Positions 26,368 to 39,884 of a stretch of 64,000 nt of DNA are shown here, piece after piece. This stretch comes from an uncultured Chloroflexia bacterium (GTDB taxonomy: Bacteria > Chloroflexota > Anaerolineae > CG2-30-64-16). The notes beneath the pieces were generated by a model. It did no database searches. It was not told the DNA's origin and worked only from the letters and a program-made list of their open reading frames with translations. Position 1 is the stretch's first letter. Each line of letters starts with the position of its first letter. The position numbers and the translations under genes are program-made. Where the stretch lies: the NCBI GenBank assembly GCA_963774265.1, contig CAVZDU010000005.1, positions 480,001 through 544,000 of the forward strand, read 5' to 3'.

Positions 26368-27324
26368 ATGGAACCCTGGGTTGTCGGCATAGATCTCGGC
26401 GCGACCAAGGTGGCTCTCGGCCTGATCGATCCTGAGAATCGGATTGTGGCTCGCAGGCGCTTTGCGATGACCGAGGCGCCTTCTGCAGCTGCCGTCGTGG
26501 ACCGCATCGCCGGAGCGGTGACCGAACTATCCGCCAGCCTGCCCTTCGGCCAGCACCCTGTCGGCGTGGCCCTGTGCAGTCCCGGCCCGCTCGATCACCA
26601 GAGCGGCATCATCCTCGATCCTCCTAACGTACCTGCCCTGCACAACGTCCCGCTTGCGCAACTCCTCCAAGATCGACTGGCCCTGCCGGTTCGCCTGGAG
26701 CACGACGCCAAGGCCGCCGCCTTGGGCGAGTACTATTACGGTGCGGGAAAAGGCGCCCGGAGCATGGTGTATATCGTCGTCGGCACGGGGGTCGGCGCGG
26801 CGATCATCGTGGACGGCCAACTATTCCGGGGGGAACACAACTCCGCGGGCGAGATCGGTCACGTCACCATCGATCCGCACGGCGAGCGTTGTTCTTGCGG
26901 CTCGATCGGCTGCGTCGAGACGTTCCTCGCCGGCCCTGGGCTGGTGCGGGCATATCGCCGCTCACTGCAGGAGGCCGCGATCTTGCCCCCAGGCGCGCCC
27001 AGCCCTGACGAGGTGACGGGCGAGGTGGTCGCCCGCCGCGTGGCAGGGGGTGATCCACTGGCCGTGGTCGCGATGGCGCGTGCCGGCGAAGCGCTGGGCG
27101 TCGCAGTCGCCTCCCTGGCGATGATCCTCAATATCGACCTCTATGTTATTGGCAGCAGCGTGTCCAAGGCGGGTGATCTGTTGCTCCAACCTGCACGCGA
27201 GGCTGTGCCGCGCCACGCCTTCCGCTCGGTCGCCAGCCGCGTGCGGATCGTTAGCTGCGACCTGCCGGATGACGGGCCCATTCTCGGGTGCGGCTGGATC
27301 ATCCGCCAGGCGGTGCGGTCATAG
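26368..27324 (+). CDS. ROK family sugar kinase
   Basis: GIDLGATK, EHDAKAAALGE, GEIGH, CSCGSIGCVE. Confidence 0.9.
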   Translation: MEPWVVGIDLGATKVALGLIDPENRIVARRRFAMTEAPSAAAVVDRIAGAVTELSASLPFGQHPVGVALCSPGPLDHQSGIILDPPNVPALHNVPLAQLLQDRLALPVRLEHDAKAAALGEYYYGAGKGARSMVYIVVGTGVGAAIIVDGQLFRGEHNSAGEIGHVTIDPHGERCSCGSIGCVETFLAGPGLVRAYRRSLQEAAILPPGAPSPDEVTGEVVARRVAGGDPLAVVAMARAGEALGVAVASLAMILNIDLYVIGSSVSKAGDLLLQPAREAVPRHAFRSVASRVRIVSCDLPDDGPILGCGWIIRQAVRS

Positions 27325-27358
27325 TGGAGACCTGTTGTCCATCCGAGGAGGCTTCAAG

Positions 27359-28414
27359 ATGGTGATTCGTATCGGCATCGTCGGTTGTGGCTCCATCAGC
27401 GAGTTCCGGCACGTCCCCGAGTACGCCGCCAATCGCAGCGCCAGGCTCGTCGCCTATTGCGACCCGCAGGGGGACAGGGCCGCGAGACTGGCAGCCAGGT
27501 ACGGCGGGCGGGTCGCGACCGATTACCGTGAGATCATCGAAGACCCGGAGATTGATGCCATCAGCGATTGCTCGACAAACGAGATGCATCACATTATCAC
27601 TACGGCTGCACTGGAGCACGACAAGCACGTACTTTGCGAGAAACCGATGGCGTTGACCCGCGAAGGCGCCCACATGATGCTGGATGCGAGCCGTAAGTCG
27701 GGCAAGATCTTGATGCTCGGCCACAACCAGCGCCTCGCCCCCGCGCACCGTAAGGCCAGGGCCATTCTCGAGGGCGGAGAGCTCGGCAAGGTGCTGACCT
27801 TCGCCACCGTCTTCGGGCACAAAGGCCCCGAGTACTGGAGCGCCGACAAGAGCAAGGCAACGTGGTTCTTCGATCGCGTCCGTTCGGGGTTCGGCGTCAC
27901 CGGCGACCTGGGCATCCACAAGGTGGATCTCCTGCGTTACTTGTTGGATGATGAATTTGTTGAGGTTTGCGCCCAGGAAGGGGTCCTCGACAAGGTCGAC
28001 TCCTCAGGTCAGCCCATTTCCAGCAGCGACAACCTGGTGGCTTTGCTCAAGACCGAACGCGGTGCTTTCGGCACGCTGACGGTGAGTTGGACCCACTACG
28101 GCCCCGAGAGCAATAGCACTACGCTCTACTGCCAGCGCGGGATCATGCAACTGTACGGCGATCCCACCTATCAGATCGTGATCCGGAAGGTTGATGGCGA
28201 GGAGGCGCTGTATAAGGTCGGCGAGATCCAGACCAACGACAACCAGACGAACAGCGGCGTCATCGACGCCTTCATCGATGCCATCCAGCGCGGTGTCCCG
28301 CCGCCCATTACCGGTGAGGACGGTCTGCGAGGGTTGGAGGTCGTGTGGGCCGCAGTAGAATCGGCGGCTAAGGGGGTCAGGGTTCGGGTGTCACATGAGG
28401 GGCGAGGTCTGTAA
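27359..28414 (+). CDS. Gfo/Idh/MocA oxidoreductase
   Basis: GIVGCGSI, HVLCEKPM, GDLGIHKVD. Confidence 0.9.
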   Translation: MVIRIGIVGCGSISEFRHVPEYAANRSARLVAYCDPQGDRAARLAARYGGRVATDYREIIEDPEIDAISDCSTNEMHHIITTAALEHDKHVLCEKPMALTREGAHMMLDASRKSGKILMLGHNQRLAPAHRKARAILEGGELGKVLTFATVFGHKGPEYWSADKSKATWFFDRVRSGFGVTGDLGIHKVDLLRYLLDDEFVEVCAQEGVLDKVDSSGQPISSSDNLVALLKTERGAFGTLTVSWTHYGPESNSTTLYCQRGIMQLYGDPTYQIVIRKVDGEEALYKVGEIQTNDNQTNSGVIDAFIDAIQRGVPPPITGEDGLRGLEVVWAAVESAAKGVRVRVSHEGRGL

Positions 28415-28417
28415 GAG

Positions 28418-29188
28418 ATGAAAGAAACCATCGGGAAGATTGACGGCAGGACCAAAATCGCGGCCGGCCTGTTCTGGGCCGATTACGGCGTTCTTGGCGC
28501 CCAGGTGGAGGAACTGACTGCAGGCGGCGTGGATTGGATCCACCTGGAGATGCGCGACGGCAAATACATGAACTTCAGCGTTCCGCGCGGCGGCATCGAT
28601 ATTCTCGAAGGGGCGCGCGACCACACCGATCTGGACATCGAAGTCCAGCTACAGATGATGCGACCTGATCACGAACTGTTCCGCCAGTTGGCGGACGCGG
28701 GCGCCAATCCGATTTCCCTGCCCATCGAGACCACCGGGGAAACCCTGATCCAGAGCATCTCCTACATCAAAGAGACTCTGGGCCTCAAAGTAGGCGTATG
28801 GGCCTGGCAGGGTTGCCCATTGGTTTTCTTCGATCCCTACCTGCCGTTCGTAGACATCATCGAATACGAGAGCCGGGCGCCGTTCTGGGCGCCGTTGAAG
28901 CCGGGACAGAGCCCGCATACGATCGACCCGATCGTGATCGAAAGCATCGGCACGCTCCATGACATGTTGGTCGGCCGTGGAGTCGCGGACCGGGTCGATC
29001 TGATGGAAGACGGAGGCCTGAACGCCGGCAACGTCGCGCAGTTTGTTGCCGCGGGCATGACCGTGGGCGAATTCTCCTCGCCGCTGCTCAAGGGTCCGGG
29101 CGGCAAGCTGCGCCCCGGCACGGGCGAAATCGCGGCCGCCGTGGCCCGCGTGCGTGCGGCGCTCGATCGGGCCGTGGCCGGCAGGTAA
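28418..29188 (+). CDS. divergent ribulose-phosphate 3-epimerase family protein
   Basis: DWIHLEMRDG, MEDGGLN resemble Rpe HxDVMDG and VDGG motifs. Confidence 0.7.
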   Translation: MKETIGKIDGRTKIAAGLFWADYGVLGAQVEELTAGGVDWIHLEMRDGKYMNFSVPRGGIDILEGARDHTDLDIEVQLQMMRPDHELFRQLADAGANPISLPIETTGETLIQSISYIKETLGLKVGVWAWQGCPLVFFDPYLPFVDIIEYESRAPFWAPLKPGQSPHTIDPIVIESIGTLHDMLVGRGVADRVDLMEDGGLNAGNVAQFVAAGMTVGEFSSPLLKGPGGKLRPGTGEIAAAVARVRAALDRAVAGR

Positions 29189-29192
29189 CACG

Positions 29193-30353
29193 ATGACGAA
29201 CACCCTCCGGCCACTCGGCATCGCTATGATCGGCTACGGCGGAATCGGGCGGGTTCACGCCATGGGCTACCGCGACCTCGGCTTCCACTATGGCTTGCCG
29301 GCCGATGCGGTGCGACTGGTCGGCGTCGCGACGACAAGGGCCGAAACGGCTGAGAAGGCGGCGCGCGAGATCGGTTGCCCGATCTGGACGGCCGATTACC
29401 GGGATCTGCTGGCACGTGACGATGTACAGGTCGTCGACGTGTCTGTGCCCAACGACCGGCACGAGGAGATCGTGCTGGCCGCGGCTGCAGCAGGTAAGCA
29501 CATCTACTGCGAGAAGCCACTCGCGCTGGATGCGGCCCAGGCGGAACGCATGGCGCACGCGGTCGAGGAGGCCGGTGTCAAGGCACAGGTGACCTTCAAC
29601 TTCCGATTCGTTCCCGCTGTGTTGAGGGCCCGCCAGCTTCTCGACGAAGGCCTGGTCGGTCGCGTCTTTTCCTTTCGGACCTGGTATTTTCGTTCCAGTT
29701 ACATCTCGCCACAGCGGCCGCTCACCTGGCGCTTCAGCCGGGAAGTGTCGGGCGGCGGCGCGCTCTTTGACCTGGGCTCGCACCTGCTGGACCTGATCAG
29801 GTTCCTGTTGGGGGATGTGGCCCAGGTACGCGCCATGCTGGAGACGCGCATCCTCGAGCGCCCGGTAGCCGGCGATCCATCCAGGATGGGCAAGGTAGAG
29901 GTCGATGACCTGGCCTTTCTGCACATGCGGCTGGCCGACGGTACGCCCGGCGCCGCCGAGACTTCGCGGCTGGCCACCGGCGCCACGAACGACTTCGAGC
30001 TCGAGATTTTCGGCGAGTCGGGCGCCGTTCGTCTCAACCTCACCGACCCGAACTGGCTGCACATTTACGATACACGCGCGGCGGACAAGCCGGTGGGCGG
30101 GCGCCGCGGCTACACCCGGGTGGAAACCATTCAACGTTTCGACGGCGCGCTTGCACCGGATTGGACCCAACCGATGAGCTTCGTGCGCTCACACGCAGAA
30201 TGCCAGTACCAGTTTTTGAAGGCCATCTGGGAAGATCGTGCACCCGAGCCCGATTTCTGGGACGGCGTGGCCGTCCAGGCCATGCTGGACGCGGCGCAAG
30301 CCTCCGCCCGCGAGAACCGATGGGCGGACGTTGAACGGATTGAACGGACATAA
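29193..30353 (+). CDS. Gfo/Idh/MocA oxidoreductase
   Basis: IGYGGIG, IYCEKPL, GGGALFDLGSHLLD. Confidence 0.9.
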   Translation: MTNTLRPLGIAMIGYGGIGRVHAMGYRDLGFHYGLPADAVRLVGVATTRAETAEKAAREIGCPIWTADYRDLLARDDVQVVDVSVPNDRHEEIVLAAAAAGKHIYCEKPLALDAAQAERMAHAVEEAGVKAQVTFNFRFVPAVLRARQLLDEGLVGRVFSFRTWYFRSSYISPQRPLTWRFSREVSGGGALFDLGSHLLDLIRFLLGDVAQVRAMLETRILERPVAGDPSRMGKVEVDDLAFLHMRLADGTPGAAETSRLATGATNDFELEIFGESGAVRLNLTDPNWLHIYDTRAADKPVGGRRGYTRVETIQRFDGALAPDWTQPMSFVRSHAECQYQFLKAIWEDRAPEPDFWDGVAVQAMLDAAQASARENRWADVERIERT

Positions 30354-30853: not shown

Positions 30854-31970
30854 CTATCCCTCCCAGCTACGCACCCCCTCGTTGACGAACTGCGTCAGCT
30901 CGCCGACGCTCAGCCGGTCGATGCCCAGCTTGTCCAGCGTACGGCCGCGGCGCCAGTAGTCGGTGCGGTGGATGATGCACGCCAGGCGGATGATCGCATC
31001 CATGCCGCGCACCGAGACGCCGATAGTGCTGGCCCAGCGCCGCAATGGGCACCAGGCTCATCGGAATGTCCTCGAAGATGTAACGATGGTTCAGCGTGCT
31101 GGGCGCCTTGATGCCATAGTAGCCGGGCTGGTTGTGGATGGCCTCGTTGAGGTCTTCGCCTTCGGCGTCGTAGGCCATCTTGAGCCACTCCTGGGCCGTC
31201 TGCGCGCGGATGCCCAGCGAGGCAGCCACGGTCACCCGCTCGCGATCCAGCACCTCCAGCACCCGCGCCACCGACGGCGTCACCCCCTCGATGTAGAACT
31301 CGTAGTCGCCGTGGGTGGACTCGATGCGGCCCGCGTTGAGCAGGGTCAGCGCCGGATGGAAGATCGCGCCCATGTTGTCGAGCCCGGTGCGCAGCACGTT
31401 GATCCCGTCGATGAACTGCGGATAGGCCGGCGCCAGGGCTTCCAGGACTTGCGCCGTGCGCGTGGCCGGCAGCGCGGCCAGCGGCACGGCCTCCTTGATG
31501 CGGAAGATGCGCGCCTGGGCCGGGCCATCGGAACGGCTGGCATAGATGAAGGTGCCGGCCTCGGCGACGGTGACATCGGCCTGGCAGCCCTGGTCGCAGA
31601 GCACCTTGTCGAACTCGATGGCGCCCAGGGTGCGGCCAGGATGCAGCACGACGATCTGCCCGTCGCGCAGGTGCGGCGCCGCGGTCTTGGCGATCTCGGC
31701 GTGGGCCGAAGAAGGCACGACGACATGCACCACGTCGGCCTCCGCCAGCGCTTCGCCCATGTCTGACGTGACGGCCGCCAGCCGGCCGAAGCCGTGCGGG
31801 CCGCCGTCGTAGCTCTCCAGGTCGATCCCGCGGCGAGCCTTGATGGCCGCCACGCGCTCGGGGGTGCGGTTGAACAGGGTCACGCGGAATCCCATCAGCG
31901 CCAGGTGGGCGGCCATCGCCTTGCCGCCGTGCCCCGCGCCGATGACGGTGTAGTTTGGAGTCGTGCTCAT
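30854..31970 (-). CDS. NAD/NADP octopine/nopaline (opine) dehydrogenase family protein (frameshift ~31025)
   Basis: GAGHGG, LHPGRTLGA, NMGAIFHP, FYIEG, LDRER, HRYIFEDIPMSL, YWRRGRTL. Confidence 0.88.
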
Positions 31971-32055
31971 TGACTGCCTCCTCATGGAATAGAGTGGATC
32001 AGGCCACGAGACGGCGGAGTGCTGTCTCACGGCCTCGACCGTGCGGAGCCGTTAC

Positions 32056-33725
32056 TCAGCTCAGCCAGATGGTGAGTTCGCTCAGAGGACTACCGGCGGC
32101 ATCCACTGCGACGCAGGCGCCCCGTTCGTCGATGCGGGTGACGATCCGCCCGCACGCGTAGCGGTTGTTGCGCAGGTGCGGCGCGTCCAGGATACCGGAG
32201 GTCACGGCCCGCGCCAGCGTGGCCGGATCGCGTGAAGGGATCGGCGCACGTCCGGCGCCAGCCAGGCGCACGGATGGCGTCCAGCGTCGACCTGCGCCTC
32301 GGCGATCAGTTCCTGCTTGCGCGCCTGGACGCGCGGGTCAGCCGGTCATGTCCGGAGCGCCGGCCACGGCATTCTCGATGGCTCGCCGCGCGACCTTGCA
32401 GGCGGCGATCACATCCTCGGCGGTGGCGGCGTGATGCGCCTCAGTGTGGCCGACCACGTGCACGATGTGCGGCTTGAGCGCCATCTGCAGATAGGTGGCC
32501 GCTGCCAGGTGCCCGCGCGCCGCTTCCGGATCGAGCGGGTGGCTCAGCAGGCCGACGCGGGTCTGCCGGTAGATGCGAAAGCTGCCCTCACTCCGGCCTC
32601 TGCCGAAGCAAGGGGCTCGATCATCTCCAGACACGCCAGCATCTTGGCCAGATCCATCGCATCCGAGAGGCCGGGCGGACTGTTGAACATCATCTGTGCG
32701 ATGTAGTCGCGCACGCCGAAGCGCGCGAGCGTTGTAGGCCGACAGATAGGCGGCGACGACGAAGACCACGTCCGGCGCATCGCGCATGCCCCAATGATGC
32801 GGCTCGTTGAGCTCCACCGGGATGCCCCGTGCGCCGTACCAGGCCATCAACTGCTGGTGCTCTCGGATCGAAGATCTCGAGGTCGTGTGGGCCGCGGCCA
32901 TCCATCGCGTTGAACCAGAAGAGCGGCACCGCGGCCCAGGCGATATTGATCGTCTCGACGTACATCTCCGCCAGCCGGATGAAGTCGTCGGTGCCCGAAT
33001 AGGTGCGCATCAGTGGGTGGTTGCCGCGGCGGCTGGCGGCGTAGAGCTGCCGGTAGTCATCGGCGCTGCGCACCGGCACGCCGCCTGCGCCCGTGCGCCG
33101 CGGGTCCTGTCGCTCCGGGTGGAAGAAGTTCTCCTGCGCATCCTGGTCGATGCCCAGCGAAATCACGTCCAGCACGCGTGCGTCGGCGATTTGCTCGATG
33201 CCCTGCGCGCGTGGCTTCCACCGTCGGCAGGCCGAAGTGATGGCGCATGAGCGGATAGGGCGCTTTCCAGGCGATGCGCTCAACGGTCGTCTGTGGGATA
33301 GTCGGCCTCGGTCGCTGTGTACTGACGCGCCCACGCAGGTAGGCCAACACTTCCTCGGTCGGCTCCGAGCCGTCGAAAACGCGCTCGAAGAAGCCGATGA
33401 GCGGCCGCTCGCTCGGCCACCGGCGGCGTGCCGCCGAACGCGAAGCGCACCCCTGCCGGCGCGCAGATCGTCGGCGGCTTCGGCGAACTCGACCAGCAGC
33501 CGTTCGCCGGTCTCCGGGGTCAGCCGGTAGGAAACGCCGACCAGTGACGCCGCATGCTTCGGCGCGCGCCGCCTCAAGCACGCGCTCGACCGGGACGGCC
33601 GGCCCCAGGAAGACCGTCTGCCAGCCGGCCGCCTCGGCCAGGCGCAGAAAGTTCATGACGCCGGCGACATGGACGCATTCGCCCAGCGCCGCAGCGACAA
33701 CTGTTTTCTGTTTATGAGAATTCAT
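32056..33725 (-). CDS. cobalamin-binding domain + TIM-barrel mutase-like protein (multiple frameshifts)
   Basis: N-terminal B12-binding Rossmann fold (GECVHVAG, FLGPAVP, VGVSY, FGG) followed by ~400 aa (RHHFGLP, GAGGVP, RTYSGT, ELNEPHHW) reconstructed across frames. Confidence 0.75.
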
Positions 33726-33827
33726 AAGGAAATATCATCCATATCAAGTTTGACAAAGGATATATCTTTCTTTATGATACTATCATCCTGACAATCTGTC
33801 AAACACGATTTCACGGAGGCGACTTTT
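33726..33827. promoter_or_regulatory. AT-rich divergent promoter region
   Basis: TTGACA-17 bp-TATGAT toward rpiR; GGAAATATCATCC and GGATATATCTTTC boxes. Confidence 0.55.
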
Positions 33828-34637
33828 ATGGCCGGTGGTGACCTGCCCGCACCCAATTTGATGCTGACGATTCGCGGTCTGCTCCCTTCGCTGAACGAGC
33901 AGGAACAGAAGGTCGGCCAATATGTGCTCGACCATCCATATGAAGTCATCCACCTGCCGATGGCAGACCTCGCAGTACGCTGCGGCGTAGGCGATACGAC
34001 GATCTTCCGCTTTTGCCGCCGCGTCCGAACCGAGGGTTACCAGGATTTCAAAATCTCCCTTGCGCGCGAGCTGCCACAGGCCACGCCTGCCATATTTGCG
34101 GCTGAGGCAGCCGGTGACGCGTTGGCCCAGGCCGCGCATAAGGTGATCACGGACGATATGAAGTCACTGGAGGACACCTTGCGCGTCCTGGATCTGGGCG
34201 CACTGGTGCGTGCGGCAGAGGCGCTGCTGGCCGCGCGACGGGTGGACATCTACGGCTCGGGCGGCAGCGCGGTCGCCGCGCTCGACCTGCAGTACAAACT
34301 GATGCGCGTGGGGGTGCGGGCGCTGGCATACACCGACGCCCAATTGCAGGCACTGTCCGCATCCCTCCTGACCCCGGCTGACCTGGCCGTCGGCATTTCC
34401 CATTCGGGCGCCGCGCCGGACGTGCTCCGAGCACTGGAGATGGCCAGGGAAGCAGGCGCGCAGACGATCGCACTCACCAACCACCCGGCGTCGCCGATCG
34501 CCCGACTCGCAGATATCAGCCTTTGCTCTGCAGCGCAGGAGGCTCCGGGGCACGGTTACCCCCTGGGCGCGCGCGTGGCCCAGGTGGGACTGATCGATGT
34601 GCTTTACACCTTTCTGACGCTCAAGCGACCGGGATGA
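33828..34637 (+). CDS. MurR/RpiR family transcriptional regulator
   Basis: HTH (TTIFRFCR...GYQDFK) + SIS domain (YGSGGS, ISHSG, IALTN). Confidence 0.92.
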   Translation: MAGGDLPAPNLMLTIRGLLPSLNEQEQKVGQYVLDHPYEVIHLPMADLAVRCGVGDTTIFRFCRRVRTEGYQDFKISLARELPQATPAIFAAEAAGDALAQAAHKVITDDMKSLEDTLRVLDLGALVRAAEALLAARRVDIYGSGGSAVAALDLQYKLMRVGVRALAYTDAQLQALSASLLTPADLAVGISHSGAAPDVLRALEMAREAGAQTIALTNHPASPIARLADISLCSAAQEAPGHGYPLGARVAQVGLIDVLYTFLTLKRPG

Positions 34638-34718: not shown

Positions 34719-35937
34719 ATGATGCCTATGACACCTTTTCTCCAGTTGGTCTTTTCTTTGATCGTCATCATCATGGCCGCCAAGGCCGGCGGCTGGTTGG
34801 CAGTGCGCTTGCGCCAACCAGCCGTCCTGGGTGAGTTGCTGGTTGGCGTCCTGCTCGGCCCCAGCCTGCTCGATCTGCTGCACTGGCCGCTCCTTGCGAA
34901 TGTGGTCGAGCCACACCTGCTGACCGAGATGATCTACCACCTGGCCGAGTTGGGGGTCATCTGTCTGATGTTTCTGGCCGGCCTGGAGGTGGATGTGCGG
35001 GAGATGCGCCGGACGGGGCGCGTGGCGACGCTGGCAGGTGTCAGCGGGGTGATCTTCCCACTGGTGCTGGGGGCGCTGGTGATGCTGCCGTTCGGCTATC
35101 ACGGCCAAGCCGCCCTCTTTGTGGGAATGATCCTGACCGCCACCAGCGTCAGCATCAGCGCGCAGACGCTGCTCGAGCTGGGCGTGCTGCGCAGCCGAGA
35201 GGGGATCGCGCTGTTGGGCGCCGCGGTGGTCGACGACGTCCTGGTGATCTTGCTGCTTTCGGTTTTCGTCGCCCTCGCAGCCTCCGGCTCTGGGGTTGGC
35301 GCCATCGTGCTGGTTGTCGTACGCATGCTGCTCTACCTGGGATTAGCGACTGCGGCCGCGCTTTCTGTTGCTGCCGCAACTGGCCAATTGGGCCGATGAC
35401 CAGTCGATCAGCGAAGGATTGGCCGCGATGGTCCTGGTGGTGATCCTCGTCTTTGCCTGGACGGCCGAGGTGGGCGGGGGGCTGGCAGCAATCACCGGCG
35501 CCTTCATTGCTGGCGTGGGTTTCGGCCGCAGCCGCCTGCACGCTGCAATAGGACGCTCCATACATACGATCGCCTACGCGTTCCTGGTGCCGATCTTCTT
35601 TGTGAGCATCGGACTCAAAACCAACGCGCGGCTGTTGACCGGGCCAGATCTCCTGCTAGTGTTCGTGCTGGTGCTTGTCGCCGTAGTGTCCAAAGTGCTG
35701 GGCGGCGGCCTGGGCGCGCGCCTGGGCGGTTTCAACAACCGTGGGTCTTTGCGCGTGGGTGTCGGAATGATCAGCCGCGGAGAGGTAGGGCTCATCGTCG
35801 CCAGTGTCGGCGTGAATGCCGGCCTGATCAAGACCGGGCTGTTCTCGGTTGTCACGATTATCGTGTTGCTCACGACACTCATTACGCCGCCGCTCTTGCG
35901 GCAGGTCTTTACGAATAAGGAGACGACTCATGCCTAG
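34719..35937 (+). CDS. cation:proton antiporter CPA2/NapA-like (frameshift ~35370)
   Basis: ATSVSIS, AAVVDDVL, PIFFVSIG, GMISRGEVG. Confidence 0.88.
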
Positions 35938-36299
35938 CCTGATCGTTGCGATATTGCCGAACATAGATCGCTGCCACGATGTGCTTCAAGCCTGGGATCG
36001 CCTGGGCGTCACCGGCATCACGATCGTCGAAAGCGCAGGACTGCACAAACTGAAGCAGGTGCGCGGGCGGTCGCGATGACATGCCACTCATGCCGTCACT
36101 GCGCCACCTCTTGGAGGCCGAGGAATACCATCACCGGACAGCCTTCGTGGTGGTGGGAGACGACTTCGACTTGCAGGGGCTGTTGCGGGCCACCGAACAG
36201 GCGGTGGGCGGCGACTTCAACGCGCCGGACAGTGGACTGCTCTTCGTGGTGCCCATTGCGCAGGTTTTTGGTTTGCGCCCACATTGGACGCAGGGGTGA
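35930..36299 (+). CDS. P-II-like small regulatory protein (frameshift ~36070)
   Basis: GVTGITIVESAG, PDSGLLFVVP, VFGL; overlaps the antiporter stop codon. Confidence 0.65.
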
Positions 36300-36403: not shown

Positions 36404-37582
36404 TTATGGCGCCGGGATGATCAGCTTCTGCCCGGGTCGTATCATTTGCGGCCTGGCAATCACCTGGAAGGTGCTGTCAGTGGCTGCGCGAGCGTTGGTA
36501 GCCTCGAAGATCTGCCGCCATCGCTCGCCGCTGCCGTAGAAGCGCTGTGCGAGCCCGTAGAGCGAATCGCCTTTTTGGACGATGTACTCCTGCTCTCCGG
36601 CGCTCCCCGCGGTCGGAGCCGGGGTGGGCGCTGCAGTAGCTGCCGCGATCGGCGCCGCAGCAGCCGCTGCCAGCGGCGCGAGCGCTGGCACCTCGAGCTG
36701 CAGCCAGGGATCATTCTGCGGTCCGGCCGCGACCCAACCGACCACGTCCGCGCCGTTATCGAGGCGGTACCAGTCGTAGCCGCCCGCACGGGTCGGACCT
36801 TCGAGCACGGTTACGAGCGTATTCATGCGCAGGGTGCCAACCTGTTTGGCCTCGGTGCTCGCCGATTCACGCACATTCAAACCGCCAGTCACCATCACAC
36901 GCGCCTGGCGCTCGCCTTGCGCAGCAGTTGACGCGGTTGCGGGCGCCGCGGTCGGCGCCTCAGTAGCCGCTGCCACCGGCTGAGCAGTGGGTTCAGCCGC
37001 TGGAGCTTCAGTCGGCATCGCCGTCGGCGCTGTGGTTGGCGCCTGCGTGGGTGCTGCCGTCGGGGCCTCGGTCGGCGCGGCGGACGGCGCCTCAGTCGAC
37101 AGGGTCGTCGGCTGGAGGGCCGGTGCGGTTGTGGCCGCGGCGGCCATCGCGCTGGCTGAAGCCGAGAGGTCCGGCACGATCAGCTTGATCTGCGGCGACT
37201 GCGTTCCCGCTCCGCCCGCGTCCGTTCGGCGGGCCACCAGGTCGTATGTGCCGGCCTTGAGGCTGTCTTTCAGGCTCCCGGCGAAATCTCCTGCCAGTTG
37301 CCATCGGCCATCCGCACCGGCAGTCACTTCACCCAGAGATATGCCGTTGGCGACGAGTTGGAGCCGCGCACCGGGCGCAGCCAGGCCACTGATCGTGAAC
37401 GCGCCGCTTTTGTCGATCTGCGGCAAATCGACGACGATGTTTGTGCCTGTCGTCGGCATGCCGTAGCTCGCGCCGCCCTGCAGAAGCAGGATGAGCGCGA
37501 TGATCGCCAGGATCACGGCCACGATGGTCTTGAAGATATCGAGCGGTCGTGCTTCCGGACGGCCCGCAGTGTTGAGCGTCAT
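36404..37582 (-). CDS. membrane-anchored Ig-like + SH3b + LysM protein
   Basis: N-terminal TM, ADGRW Ig-like motif, APT linker, GLNVRE...GWV SH3b, YIVQKGDSL...IRPGQKLIIP LysM. Confidence 0.85.
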   Translation of the reverse strand: MTLNTAGRPEARPLDIFKTIVAVILAIIALILLLQGGASYGMPTTGTNIVVDLPQIDKSGAFTISGLAAPGARLQLVANGISLGEVTAGADGRWQLAGDFAGSLKDSLKAGTYDLVARRTDAGGAGTQSPQIKLIVPDLSASASAMAAAATTAPALQPTTLSTEAPSAAPTEAPTAAPTQAPTTAPTAMPTEAPAAEPTAQPVAAATEAPTAAPATASTAAQGERQARVMVTGGLNVRESASTEAKQVGTLRMNTLVTVLEGPTRAGGYDWYRLDNGADVVGWVAAGPQNDPWLQLEVPALAPLAAAAAAPIAAATAAPTPAPTAGSAGEQEYIVQKGDSLYGLAQRFYGSGERWRQIFEATNARAATDSTFQVIARPQMIRPGQKLIIPAP

Positions 37583-37612: not shown

Positions 37613-38473
37613 TCACCGGCCGCCCTTAAGCTGGTCTTGCAGGGCCTTCAAGCCATCCCAGTCGCCGCTAGCGGCCAGGAGTGCCTGCTGGGCCCACGAG
37701 CCCGGATCGGCCACACGGAAGCGCGGCCCTGCATCGGCCAGGATGCGCTGGAGGGTGACCAGGGGCGTCCCGGCCAGCTCTGCGAAAGTGCGGATGCCCT
37801 GCTCGTCCAGTAAACGGGCGATGGCGGGGCCGATTCCCTCGATGAGTTTCAGATCGTCAGGCAGCAATGACCGCACCGAGGCGCCGAGGCCGGCAACCCC
37901 AAGATCGACGTCCGGCAGCTCGAGCTGGCCGGTGCGCTCACTCGGGTAGGTCACTTCGGGTGCTTCCAGGTCGGGCGCTGCAACTGCACGTGCCTCGAAC
38001 GAGGGCGCCTCGAACGAGGGCGCCTCGATGTGTGGAGCGCTCAGGCGGGCGTTCAATTCAGCAATGCGTGTGTATGCCGCGTCCAGCTCGCTTTTCAGGA
38101 CAGGCAGTTGGGCGTCCAGATCGGCGCTGCGTGCGTTCGCTACGTCAAGCTCGCCGCGCAGATCAGGCAGTTGTGCGTCCAGCTCAGCGATACGTGCATG
38201 CGCTACGTCAAGCTCGCCGCGCAGGCCAGGAAGCTGAACATCCAACTCGGCGATGCGTGCGCGAGCCGCGGTCAACTCACTCCGCAGCTGGCTGGTTTCC
38301 GGGCCAACTGCCCGGAGCCGCGCCGTCTCGTTTTTCGCGTTCGCCAACTCTTCGCGCAGCCGCGCCTCATCCTCTTGGCACTTCTGCCACCGACGTCGCC
38401 AGTAGAAAATGTCGATGAGCCATTCGACAAGCCAGCCAACCAGTGCGCCTACGACAAAGCTAAACCAGTGCAT
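37613..38473 (-). CDS. membrane-anchored coiled-coil protein with C-terminal helix-hairpin-helix (DUF4332-like)
   Basis: N-terminal TM, 21-aa repeats, DDLKLIEGIGP...GIRTFAELA...SWAQQA. Confidence 0.8.
   Translation of the reverse strand: MHWFSFVVGALVGWLVEWLIDIFYWRRRWQKCQEDEARLREELANAKNETARLRAVGPETSQLRSELTAARARIAELDVQLPGLRGELDVAHARIAELDAQLPDLRGELDVANARSADLDAQLPVLKSELDAAYTRIAELNARLSAPHIEAPSFEAPSFEARAVAAPDLEAPEVTYPSERTGQLELPDVDLGVAGLGASVRSLLPDDLKLIEGIGPAIARLLDEQGIRTFAELAGTPLVTLQRILADAGPRFRVADPGSWAQQALLAASGDWDGLKALQDQLKGGR
38052..38290. repeat. ~4 x 63-bp in-frame tandem repeat
   Basis: units at ~38052, 38115, 38178, 38241 encoding LRGELDVAxARIAELDAQLP variants. Confidence 0.85.
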
Positions 38474-38576: not shown

Positions 38577-39836
38577 TAGGGCAATCGCATCTTAATTGCC
38601 CTGGCCGAAGAGCACTTTGAGCAGGTACGGCTCGTCCCAGCCGGCTTTGAGGCGTTTGGCCTTGATGCCGGCCTTGACAGTCTTTTCCTGTTTGAGCAGG
38701 TTGAGGGCAATGTGCCGGAGGACAGCGAAGTTGGCCGGGCCGTTGTCCTTGCGCACCCGCTGGTGATCTTCATCGAAGGCGATGTCGAGCACCCAGTGCA
38801 GCGAGTTTTCGATGCCCCAATGGCTGCGCACCGCTTTGAGCATGCGCCGGGCATCGCCGTCCAGGCTGGAGATGAAGTAACGGGTCTTCGATCGTCGTCT
38901 CGCCCGTTCATGCGGCGCTCGGCGACGACCTTGACGATGGTGCGCAGGTTGCGCCACCCGGCCCGGTTGCGCAGGTAGCTGACCAGACTGCGCATCGGAG
39001 ATGGTCCAACACTGGCGGATTTCCAGGCGGCCATGCTCCTTGTCCGTGGTCTTGTGGTAATCGTGCGGCACGTCCTTGAAGTTCACTTCTTGGGCGGCAT
39101 CAAACAGCGCTTGGATGTCTTCGTAGAGATGGCCCTGGTTCTCCTTGACCGCCAGCACGTAGTCGGCGTCCTGCTCGACAATCGCCTGGGCGATCTCGGT
39201 TTGGCAGCCGATGGCGTCGATGGTCACGATGCAGCCGGCAATTTCCAGCACTTGCAGCAGCTTGGGGATGGCCGTGATCTCGTTGGATTTGTCGTCCACC
39301 TTGACCTGACCCAGCACCAAATGATTGGCCGTGGCCCAGGCACTGACCATGTCGATGCCCGCCTTGCCCAGCAGCCGGTTGCAGGAGCCGCGCAGCACCT
39401 TACCATCAATCGCAATGACTTGGCCGCAGGTCACCTCGCTCACGGCCTGAATCCATGCCAGAAAACACTGCTGGAACTGCTCGGGATTCAGCCGAGCAAA
39501 CACCCGCCCAAAGGTGTCGTGCGAAGGGATGCCGTTGGGCAGTTCAAGGAACGTCCGTCAGCCACGCCAGCTTGGCGTTCCCGAACAGTTCCACCTCGAC
39601 CCAATCATCGGCACCACAGATGATGGCGCAGATCGCAATGACGAGGATGTCGAGCAGCTGATGCAGCTTCGTCCGGTCGATCCGGGGATCTTCCAGGCTC
39701 GCAAAGTGCTCGCTGATCGAAGCGGTAGGCTCGTTGTTCATGGCTACCCTCCTGACAACTCAAGGATAGCCCATTTCGCCTGCCGCGTCTACCATCCAAG
39801 CAAACAATATGACATTTATTAGATGCGTACGCCCTT
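38577..39836 (-). mobile_element. ISAs1 family insertion sequence
   Basis: TIRs AGGGCaatCGCATCT / AGGGCgtaCGCATCT; 10-bp TSD GCGGAACCCG at 38567-38576 and 39837-39846. Confidence 0.92.
38592..39741 (-). CDS. ISAs1 transposase (frameshifted)
   Basis: [55 protein letters not shown]. Confidence 0.92.
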
Positions 39837-39855
39837 GCGGAACCCGGATTTTTGT

Positions 39856-39884
39856 TTGACACTCCCCCCCGCCGCGGGTATAAT
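39856..39884 (+). promoter_or_regulatory. consensus sigma70 promoter of dnaG-rpoD
   Basis: TTGACA-17 bp-TATAAT. Confidence 0.8.

Follow-up and report, generated by a model that had tools for sequence, protein, structure and literature searches.

In a window of 64,000 nucleotides (nt) from an uncultured Chloroflexia bacterium (GenBank assembly GCA_963774265.1, contig CAVZDU010000005.1, positions 480,001 to 544,000), the gene of a single-chain protein related to coenzyme B12-dependent mutases, here called the mutase after its predicted fold, is followed on the same strand by an opine dehydrogenase gene that starts 85 nt 3′ of it. A gene for an RpiR-family regulator is divergent from the pair, and this geometry is as given in a preliminary description of the stretch. 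The pair represents a real and widespread orphan pathway and is not a new discovery, since it appears to be the one to which a publication of 2009 drew attention (Zhang, Rodionov, Gelfand and Gladyshev, PMC2667541). The slightly favoured reading of its function is that the dehydrogenase makes an opine, that the B12 enzyme rearranges this opine, and that the product would serve as a compatible solute under salt stress.

The association of the two genes was surveyed in 180 loci, of which 100 are from Chloroflexota (20 taken from the 29 matches found in relatives, together with the best 80 of 585) and 80 are distant metagenome loci (the best 80 of 567). A dehydrogenase gene is found at 91 of the Chloroflexota loci and at 74 of the distant loci, and the linkage proposed in the preliminary description thus extends well beyond this bacterium. 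In 72 of the 80 distant loci the dehydrogenase is adjacent and co-oriented, and five of the six loci that lack it end at a contig edge. The gene order varies, with the dehydrogenase upstream of the mutase in 44 distant loci and downstream in 28. A search with a clean 111-amino acid (aa) fragment of the mutase in 41 genomes (this genome, which is 84% complete, and 40 relatives) detected the mutase gene in 27, mostly as open frames longer than 500 aa. All 27 genomes have a close dehydrogenase, one of them a contig-end fragment; among the 14 genomes without the mutase a dehydrogenase, and a distant one, is present only in G030. In G003, G004 and G040 mutase and dehydrogenase lie far from each other. 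Sequence identities of mutases and dehydrogenases correlate (Spearman 0.57, 74 pairs), a correlation that kinship alone explains, and a predicted mutase-dehydrogenase complex (L045 pair, 74-row alignments) scored 0.00 against a mark of 0.32, which carries no weight either way.

Structural comparisons were all made with an intact homologue of 547 aa (P0001), which stands in for the frameshifted gene of the window. The AlphaFold2 model of P0001 has a mean pLDDT of 94.4. Its best Foldseek match is glutamate mutase E (6h9e_B, E 2.1e-15), with ornithine and lysine aminomutases and methylmalonyl-CoA mutase as runners-up. With VIA-align the closest chain is 1cb7_B of glutamate mutase (Z 33.1, root mean square deviation 3.1 A, 378 residues aligned), ahead of lysine aminomutase (LAM, Z 30.4), ornithine aminomutase (OAM, 27.4) and methylmalonyl-CoA mutase (22.6), and ranks 1-21 by Z are all chains of adenosylcobalamin (AdoCbl) mutases or aminomutases. 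Thus a barrel of the mutase type, which the preliminary description had surmised, is predicted, and it is closest to that of glutamate mutase. An ESM Atlas search with residues 135-547 placed 26 of 30 matches in PF06368 clusters (up to 0.94). Alignment of the family profile with a 10-sequence GlmE-type profile by hhalign covers the whole barrel (97.5%, E 5.8e-12); the match to a single GlmE sequence is weak (64.6%). The Rossmann domain of P0001 exceeds the cut-off of the B12-binding model PF02310 (35.3 bits vs 32.1).

The family nevertheless falls outside the existing glutamate mutase models: P0001 is below the cut-offs of PF06368 (17.9 vs 26.6) and NF002612 (15.8 vs 110), and two homologues pass PF06368 narrowly (27.5 and 29.4). 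A PF06368 match in G030 was rejected as a glutamate mutase, as it is a methylmalonyl-CoA mutase. When the 111-aa fragment was searched against the PDB, all matches were spurious (designed barrels and antibodies), and no member of the family was found in the plasmid collection searched. The family is large, with 7013 clusters at 90% identity among the 7999 candidates scored and 848 representatives at 50%, and its named hosts are Anaerolineae, Clostridia (Oscillospiraceae and others) and a Promethearchaeota archaeon. Those named relatives that are nearest to the gene of the window are Anaerolineae, and its host thus likely belongs to this class. In three homologues (P0161, P0173, P0176) the B12 domain, the barrel and GlmL are fused in a single protein of up to about 1,250 aa. 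In P0130 the mutase is fused to a RimK/GSH-type ATP-grasp domain. A divergent branch (P0184, P0189, P0193, P0204, P0245 and similar sequences) has proteins of about 600-630 aa with about 35% identity, several of which carry the canonical D-x-H.

Residues of the active site were counted in 76 non-redundant sequences chosen from 455, with a map taken from profile alignment rather than superposed coordinates and with numbering transferred to C. cochlearium GlmE. The cobalt-ligand His17 is kept in 71 of the 76. The position two residues before it is Cys in 59, as in this genome, and Asp in 12; the Cys variant of DxHxxG, pointed out in the preliminary description as C-V-H-V-A-G, is thus supported. 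The CxHxxG form looks like a variant of DxHxxG, since the Asp form survives in the divergent branch. Glu417, which lies in a gap-free aligned block, corresponds to the adenosyl-ribose-binding E330 of GlmE (E338 in OAM, E370 in methylmalonyl-CoA mutase) and is kept in 73 of 76; in glutamate mutase E330 helps Co-C homolysis (PMC4413051). The position of GlmE Y177 is Tyr or Phe in 75.

Important is the replacement of the residues with which glutamate mutase binds glutamate, namely R66, R100, R149 and E171 as listed in PMC10947579. The three arginines of this claw are replaced by H158 (73 of 76), Q192 (73 of 76) and Y237 (75 of 76), respectively, and the position of E171 (259) is Cys, Ala or Gly in 60. 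K326 of GlmE is Val in 72. In their place the family displays new conserved arginines, R156, R/K235, R272, R309 and R378 (in 73-75 of 76), and also D270, E299 and H411. The profile alignment places R156 and R235 two residues before lost claw positions on the same strands, and this placement suggests a deeper cationic pocket. The lysine that binds pyridoxal phosphate (PLP) in OraE is missing, as the OraE insertion carrying it is a gap in the family profile. Because His17 and Glu417 are kept, the claw is replaced and the PLP-lysine insertion is absent, the protein likely works like an AdoCbl mutase and yet is neither a glutamate mutase nor a PLP aminomutase.

The dehydrogenase of this genome matches PF02317 with 148.8 bits (cut-off 30) and is of the NAD(P) Rossmann fold. 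Its residues were counted in 152 full-length linked copies out of 162 open reading frames (ORFs), this genome's included. The specificity residues R111 and G198 are present in 152 and 151 of these, the NADPH-type R35 in 150, and H202, R292 and D297 in 151, 151 and 147. According to the mutagenesis described by Telek et al. 2024 (PMC10787698), the R111/G198 pair shifts preference to acidic amino acids. The six mODHs assayed there with pyruvate convert L-Asp (38-100%) and L-Glu (2-96%), most of them with NADPH, and also cysteate, homocysteate and 2-aminopimelate. One of them, mODH-55, is about 76% identical to the enzyme of this genome (194 of 256 displayed residues, counted by eye). A family member from L183 matches 1BG6, the Arthrobacter CENDH (E 4e-76), and three distant dehydrogenases used as controls (L232, two in L233) are without R111. 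From their residues the linked dehydrogenases are likely of the type that joins L-Asp or L-Glu to pyruvate.

Regulatory sequences at other loci point to an osmolyte. In a first Rfam scan of 14 loci, five had a cyclic di-AMP (c-di-AMP) riboswitch in front of the operon. Six of these Rfam hits served to build a sequence model, which may miss GC-rich switches. It matched 21 of the 80 distant loci, where the switch always lies on the coding strand and precedes the first gene by 13-373 nt, and 3 of the 100 Chloroflexota loci, directly before the mutase; two of these three are from this bacterial family. Of the resulting 24 loci among 180, 16 are confirmed by Rfam, including 11 of 11 rechecked. Riboswitches of this class control osmotic-stress genes, an osmolyte aminomutase gene among them (PMC9337991). 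In addition, a c-di-AMP receptor gene is found at 13 of the 100 Chloroflexota loci, where its two sites in this genome would lead one to expect about 0.5%, and in G003 the dehydrogenase gene lies between a c-di-AMP receptor gene and TrkH. At L145:9736-9871 a second c-di-AMP riboswitch lies between the mutase gene, which it directly follows, and a further gene. No cobalamin riboswitch was detected by Rfam in the window or in 25 loci scanned.

The preliminary description had placed the pair under RpiR control, for which no support was found. RpiR genes are present at 8 of the 100 Chloroflexota loci, seven of them from same-family kin, and at none of the 80 distant loci. The gap between mutase and rpiR in the window has two sigma-70-like promoters (2 sites vs a shuffle mean of 0.8), both of whose TTGACA boxes recur in six intergenic regions of kin; these boxes are the sole conserved stand-outs among the kin intergenic regions, and no RpiR operator was found there. 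In G004, where the mutase is elsewhere, an rpiR gene diverges from the dehydrogenase gene and has a Na+/H+ exchanger gene downstream of it. Because RpiR stays with the dehydrogenase there, it may belong to the module in this bacterial family only. The regulator that recurs across lineages is the c-di-AMP riboswitch, not RpiR.

Other genes recur at a lower frequency. A gene for an asparagine synthetase (AsnB)-like protein is present in 43 of the 180 loci; its catalytic Cys is kept in 14, replaced by Ala, Ser or Thr in 23, and unassigned in 6. Its residue D384 is replaced by A or N in 39 of 43 and D351 is kept, and the human equivalent of D351 binds the amino group in a model (PMC6748925). The proposal that the AsnB-like partner acts without alpha-amino binding is thus half supported by its residues. 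A default assignment as beta-lactam synthetase was rejected, with E 4e-51 to AsnB vs 2e-18 to beta-lactam synthetase; a Cys-bearing member clears the AsnB cut-off. The Cys-less subfamily (L017:10097-11440 and 22 similar loci) has a shortened glutaminase domain in addition to the replaced Cys and D384, and in an aligned member T322/T323 are also replaced; the subfamily likely uses ammonia or an amine. A Ddl-like ATP-grasp gene is found in 11 of 180 loci, two of them resembling ordinary ddl, GlmL adjacent to the pair in 5, and a family-5 solute-binding protein in 7. Two Ddl-like genes flank the pair at L189:6898-11813, and at L034:774-6121 the mutase is accompanied by GlmL, by two dehydrogenases in tandem and by a family-5 solute-binding protein. 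The plasmid records L213 and L214 show distant methylaspartate mutases with the true claw (Methylobacter, Streptomyces) next to asparagine synthetase A, so that a mutase is paired with amidation there in parallel.

Taken as a pathway, the dehydrogenase would join pyruvate to L-aspartate or L-glutamate with NADPH to form an N-(1-carboxyethyl) opine, and the adjacent enzyme, a predicted AdoCbl user, would isomerise this opine, which has three carboxylates, in a radical reaction. At loci that have them, an AsnB-like or ATP-grasp enzyme would convert a carboxylate to an amide, and GlmL would maintain the cofactor. Under salt or potassium stress the product would accumulate and act as a compatible solute. 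The leading candidate for the chemistry, put forward tentatively and with a direct precedent, is a fragmentation and recombination of the glutamate mutase type that would convert N-(1-carboxyethyl)-L-glutamate to N-(1-carboxyethyl)-3-methylaspartate. The glutamate opine would split into acrylate and an N-substituted glycyl radical, which would recombine to the 3-methylaspartate opine; the N-substituent would fit into the space freed by the loss of Glu171, and the new arginines would bind the additional carboxylate. A close alternative, which is rather improbable taken by itself, is a shift of the nitrogen across the acrylate unit, from N-(1-carboxyethyl)-L-aspartate to N-(2-carboxyethyl)-L-aspartate, by a PLP-free B12 “opine mutase”. 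The dehydrogenase could not reverse this product, and the AsnB-like partner would amidate it, or the Cys-less form might instead close a beta-lactam. The nitrogen shift fits the uniform Asp activity of the assayed mODHs and the AsnB partner; against it, we know of no precedent for an N-centred migration.

Several observations weigh against the opine-rearranging pathway or parts of it. All three claw arginines are replaced besides E171, so the substrate should sit unlike glutamate, and the fragmentation chemistry is weakened. In the published assays mODH-48 barely uses L-Glu (2%) and all six enzymes use L-Asp, racemic 2-aminopimelate and homocysteate are also good substrates, and the kcat of mODH is about 1 per second vs 861 for ArODH (PMC10787698). 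Given these good alternative substrates and the low kcat, the natural amino acid may be another one. One dehydrogenase with the R111/G198 pair (L234) adjoins an ABC transporter and has no adjacent mutase. The riboswitch is present in just 24 of 180 loci and was not found by Rfam in the window, and the 21 distant loci that have it reduce to 11 groups when clustered at 80% identity and to 6 when clustered at 70%. An ion or solute gene is found at 42 of the 100 Chloroflexota loci, by a list chosen after seeing the data and among kin that are not independent. Neither an AsnB of the linked type nor a full GlmL was found in this genome, which is incomplete as stated above.

The low kcat on L-Asp is also the point that speaks for an inverse order of reactions, in which a free oxo acid or acidic amino acid would be rearranged by the mutase before the dehydrogenase condenses the product with pyruvate, the end product again being an opine solute. 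The free gene order is compatible with this. However all the GlmE residues that hold a free alpha-amino acid (R66, R149, E171) are lost, and at least three of the new arginines suit a larger polyanion; the inverse order is held to be unlikely.

It is less likely still that the enzyme is a PLP-free aminomutase in which an imine of pyruvate and the amino acid replaces the PLP aldimine, with a shift of the amino group. The product would be a beta-amino acid, for example the known osmolyte beta-glutamate. After glutamate mutase, LAM and OAM have the closest folds, and a Ddl-like ATP-grasp gene stands both beside this pair and beside a KamA gene, as if the modules were interchangeable. Moreover ablA and eam are osmolyte genes under riboswitch control (PMC9337991). 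On the other side, such a reaction is without known precedent, a free imine is labile, and dehydrogenases of this kind reduce the imine; the separation of the two genes in three genomes better fits a stable intermediate. The KamA gene is in this genome (L221:3644-6032; contig C6, 379.6-382.0 kb), a frameshifted gene of the 2,3-aminomutase type whose best pieces match AblA, and the Ddl-like gene after it is akin to those found with the mutase-dehydrogenase pair elsewhere. These two genes are possibly a parallel solute pathway.

A catabolic role, in which opines would be imported, rearranged and split into pyruvate and an amino acid that is fermented, with RpiR as a sensor of carbon status, is very improbable. 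It would account for the family-5 solute-binding proteins, for the RpiR gene that is divergent to the dehydrogenase in G004, and for the window's sugar-catabolism cluster, which lies past the dehydrogenase. However, none of the transporters is a constant neighbour, and a biosynthetic role is suggested by the NADPH-type R35, by the amide ligases, which consume ATP, and by the c-di-AMP switches. In none of the 41 genomes was a true GlmE found, and a strong PF07476 match (methylaspartate ammonia-lyase) was found in two, against 27 with the mutase, which argues against glutamate fermentation. No such ammonia-lyase is among the recurring neighbours.

The state of the mutase gene in the window raises a separate question, that of decay. 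Translation of 33725-32056 (minus strand) in three frames displays a B12-binding start with G-E-C-V-H-V-A-G (His codon at 33671), and the long domain that follows is scattered across all three frames. In a frameshift-aware alignment with the intact P0039, 539 residues align and 483 are identical (90%), with no stops and 11 frame changes; with P0001 446 of 536 are identical, also with 11 frame changes, and P0018 gives 14. The reconstruction in the preliminary description, a protein of about 550 aa with a B12-binding Rossmann domain and a catalytic domain read across frame shifts, is confirmed by these alignments. The number of shifts, about 11 in 1.67 kb vs one (near 31019) in the 1.1-kb dehydrogenase gene, could indicate a decaying pseudogene, in this genome only and separate from the function of the family. 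This is very doubtful, as the aligned path is free of stops at 90% identity, all ten conserved motifs checked are intact, and frame shifts also hit the essential rpoD gene for the primary sigma factor in the window and the TrpRS-like and KamA genes on contig C6. Because those genes are shifted too and the relatives have open frames, the shifts in the mutase are likely assembly errors.

Hardly credible is a methylcobalamin-dependent corrinoid protein or methyltransferase, as implied by automatic database names such as “methionine synthase” and by weak matches of the Rossmann domain to corrinoid proteins and MetH, since the scores are far under the cut-offs (TIGR02370 17.6 vs 215, TIGR02082 9.7 vs 1011), the barrel is that of AdoCbl mutases, the GlmE E330 equivalent is kept, and GlmL fusions occur.

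Table 1. Features of the mutase-dehydrogenase locus, with positions in the window.
Feature	Position	Strand	Basis
GlmS/GlmE-like cobalamin enzyme, single chain, about 550 aa	32056..33725	-	alignment to intact homologues, structure model
Mutase domains: Rossmann (about residues 1-130), TIM barrel (about 135-545)	32056..33725	-	model of homologue
C-V-H-V-A-G cobalt-ligand motif, Cys replacing the usual Asp	33660..33677	-	motif located in translation
Opine dehydrogenase, acidic-amino-acid (mODH) type; R35, R111, G198, H202, R292, D297 (ArODH numbering)	30854..31970	-	PF02317, residue counts
Sigma-70-like promoter TTGACA-17-TATCAT, toward the mutase-dehydrogenase operon	33774..33802	-	11/12 matches
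Sigma-70-like promoter TTGACA-17-TATGAT, toward rpiR, overlapping the operon promoter	33750..33778	+	11/12 matches
RpiR-family regulator (HTH_6 + SIS), divergent from the mutase	33828..34637	+	domain matches
Na+/H+ exchanger (CPA), split by a frame shift; ion-homeostasis context	34719..35937	+	domain match

The surroundings of the locus in the window contain further genes. The sugar-catabolism cluster that converges on the dehydrogenase (26368-30353) consists of a ROK kinase, two Gfo/Idh/MocA oxidoreductases and a ribulose-phosphate-epimerase-like gene, and it is not among the recurring neighbours of the pair. On the other side the exchanger gene is followed by a small frameshifted ORF (35930-36299) that is P-II-like by eye and whose two pieces gave no Pfam match. 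Beyond it, an Ig-like/SH3/LysM surface protein (36404-37582) lies beside a coiled-coil protein with a C-terminal helix-hairpin-helix domain (37613-38473), and a fragmented transposase-like reading frame (38592-39862), possibly ISAs1-like, follows.

Few AdoCbl radical reactions are known. If the opine-rearranging pathway is true, B12 chemistry would gain a further reaction, and probably a compatible solute new to science would come with it; if the nitrogen shift is true, this would be the first B12 “opine mutase”, giving a new compatible solute under c-di-AMP control in anaerobes that range from Chloroflexota and Clostridia to Asgard archaea. The assayed relatives of the dehydrogenase, the rebuilt polycationic pocket of a glutamate mutase fold and the c-di-AMP switches together narrow the question to one that is directly testable.

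By its description, the pair appears to be the “novel B12-dependent protein family” predicted by Zhang et al. 2009 in 11 genomes (PMC2667541). The account of that family agrees in an N-terminal distant B12-binding domain, in being “always adjacent” to pfam02317, in a D-Ala:D-Ala ligase and an asparagine synthase nearby, and in having Chloroflexi and Clostridia among its hosts. It differs in placing the TIM-like part N-terminally, whereas the model here has the barrel at about residues 135-545, and the description of the family gives no substrate, catalytic residues or regulation. No characterisation of the function of the pair since 2009 was found in the literature searched, which leaves out most subscription papers. 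Thus the statement in the preliminary description that no characterised pathway matches still stands as to the pathway, and needs amending in that the family and its context match the 2009 prediction, close relatives of the dehydrogenase have been assayed (PMC10787698), and AsnB-like, ATP-grasp and GlmL genes recur as partners. None of the findings that the preliminary description named as contrary to its proposal turned up.

Among characterised systems the closest is glutamate mutase, GlmS/GlmE with GlmL (EC 5.4.99.1; 1CB7, 1I9C, 6H9E), with which the family shares the closest barrel, the His ligand, the E330 and Y177 positions and the links to GlmL. Unlike it, the enzyme is a single chain with R66, R100, R149, E171 and K326 replaced and mostly Cys for Asp in the His motif, an ammonia-lyase is seldom in the genome, and a dehydrogenase is the constant partner. 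OraE and KamDE (3KOW, 1XRS, 8T0V) share the barrel class (Z 27-30) and a B12 Rossmann domain; however the four-residue insertion of OraE with the PLP lysine is absent, and the B12 domain is N-terminal here, unlike in both. The dehydrogenase shares the R111/G198 pair, R35 and the His-Asp dyad with mODH-45/47/49/55 (PMC10787698) and CENDH (1BG6). The work of Telek et al. 2024 (PMC10787698) is a biocatalysis study without gene context, and the strings “B12” and “neighbo” do not occur in its main text. CENDH prefers apolar amino acids and NADH. The enzymes of the ablA/eam systems are of the radical S-adenosylmethionine (SAM)/PLP type and their products are known, whereas the system here has a B12 enzyme with an opine partner. 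Common to both is a gene for a radical rearrangement behind a c-di-AMP riboswitch, as for ablA in Dehalobacter sp. CF (White et al. 2022, PMC9337991), and, if the product here is a solute as proposed, also a non-standard amino acid solute.

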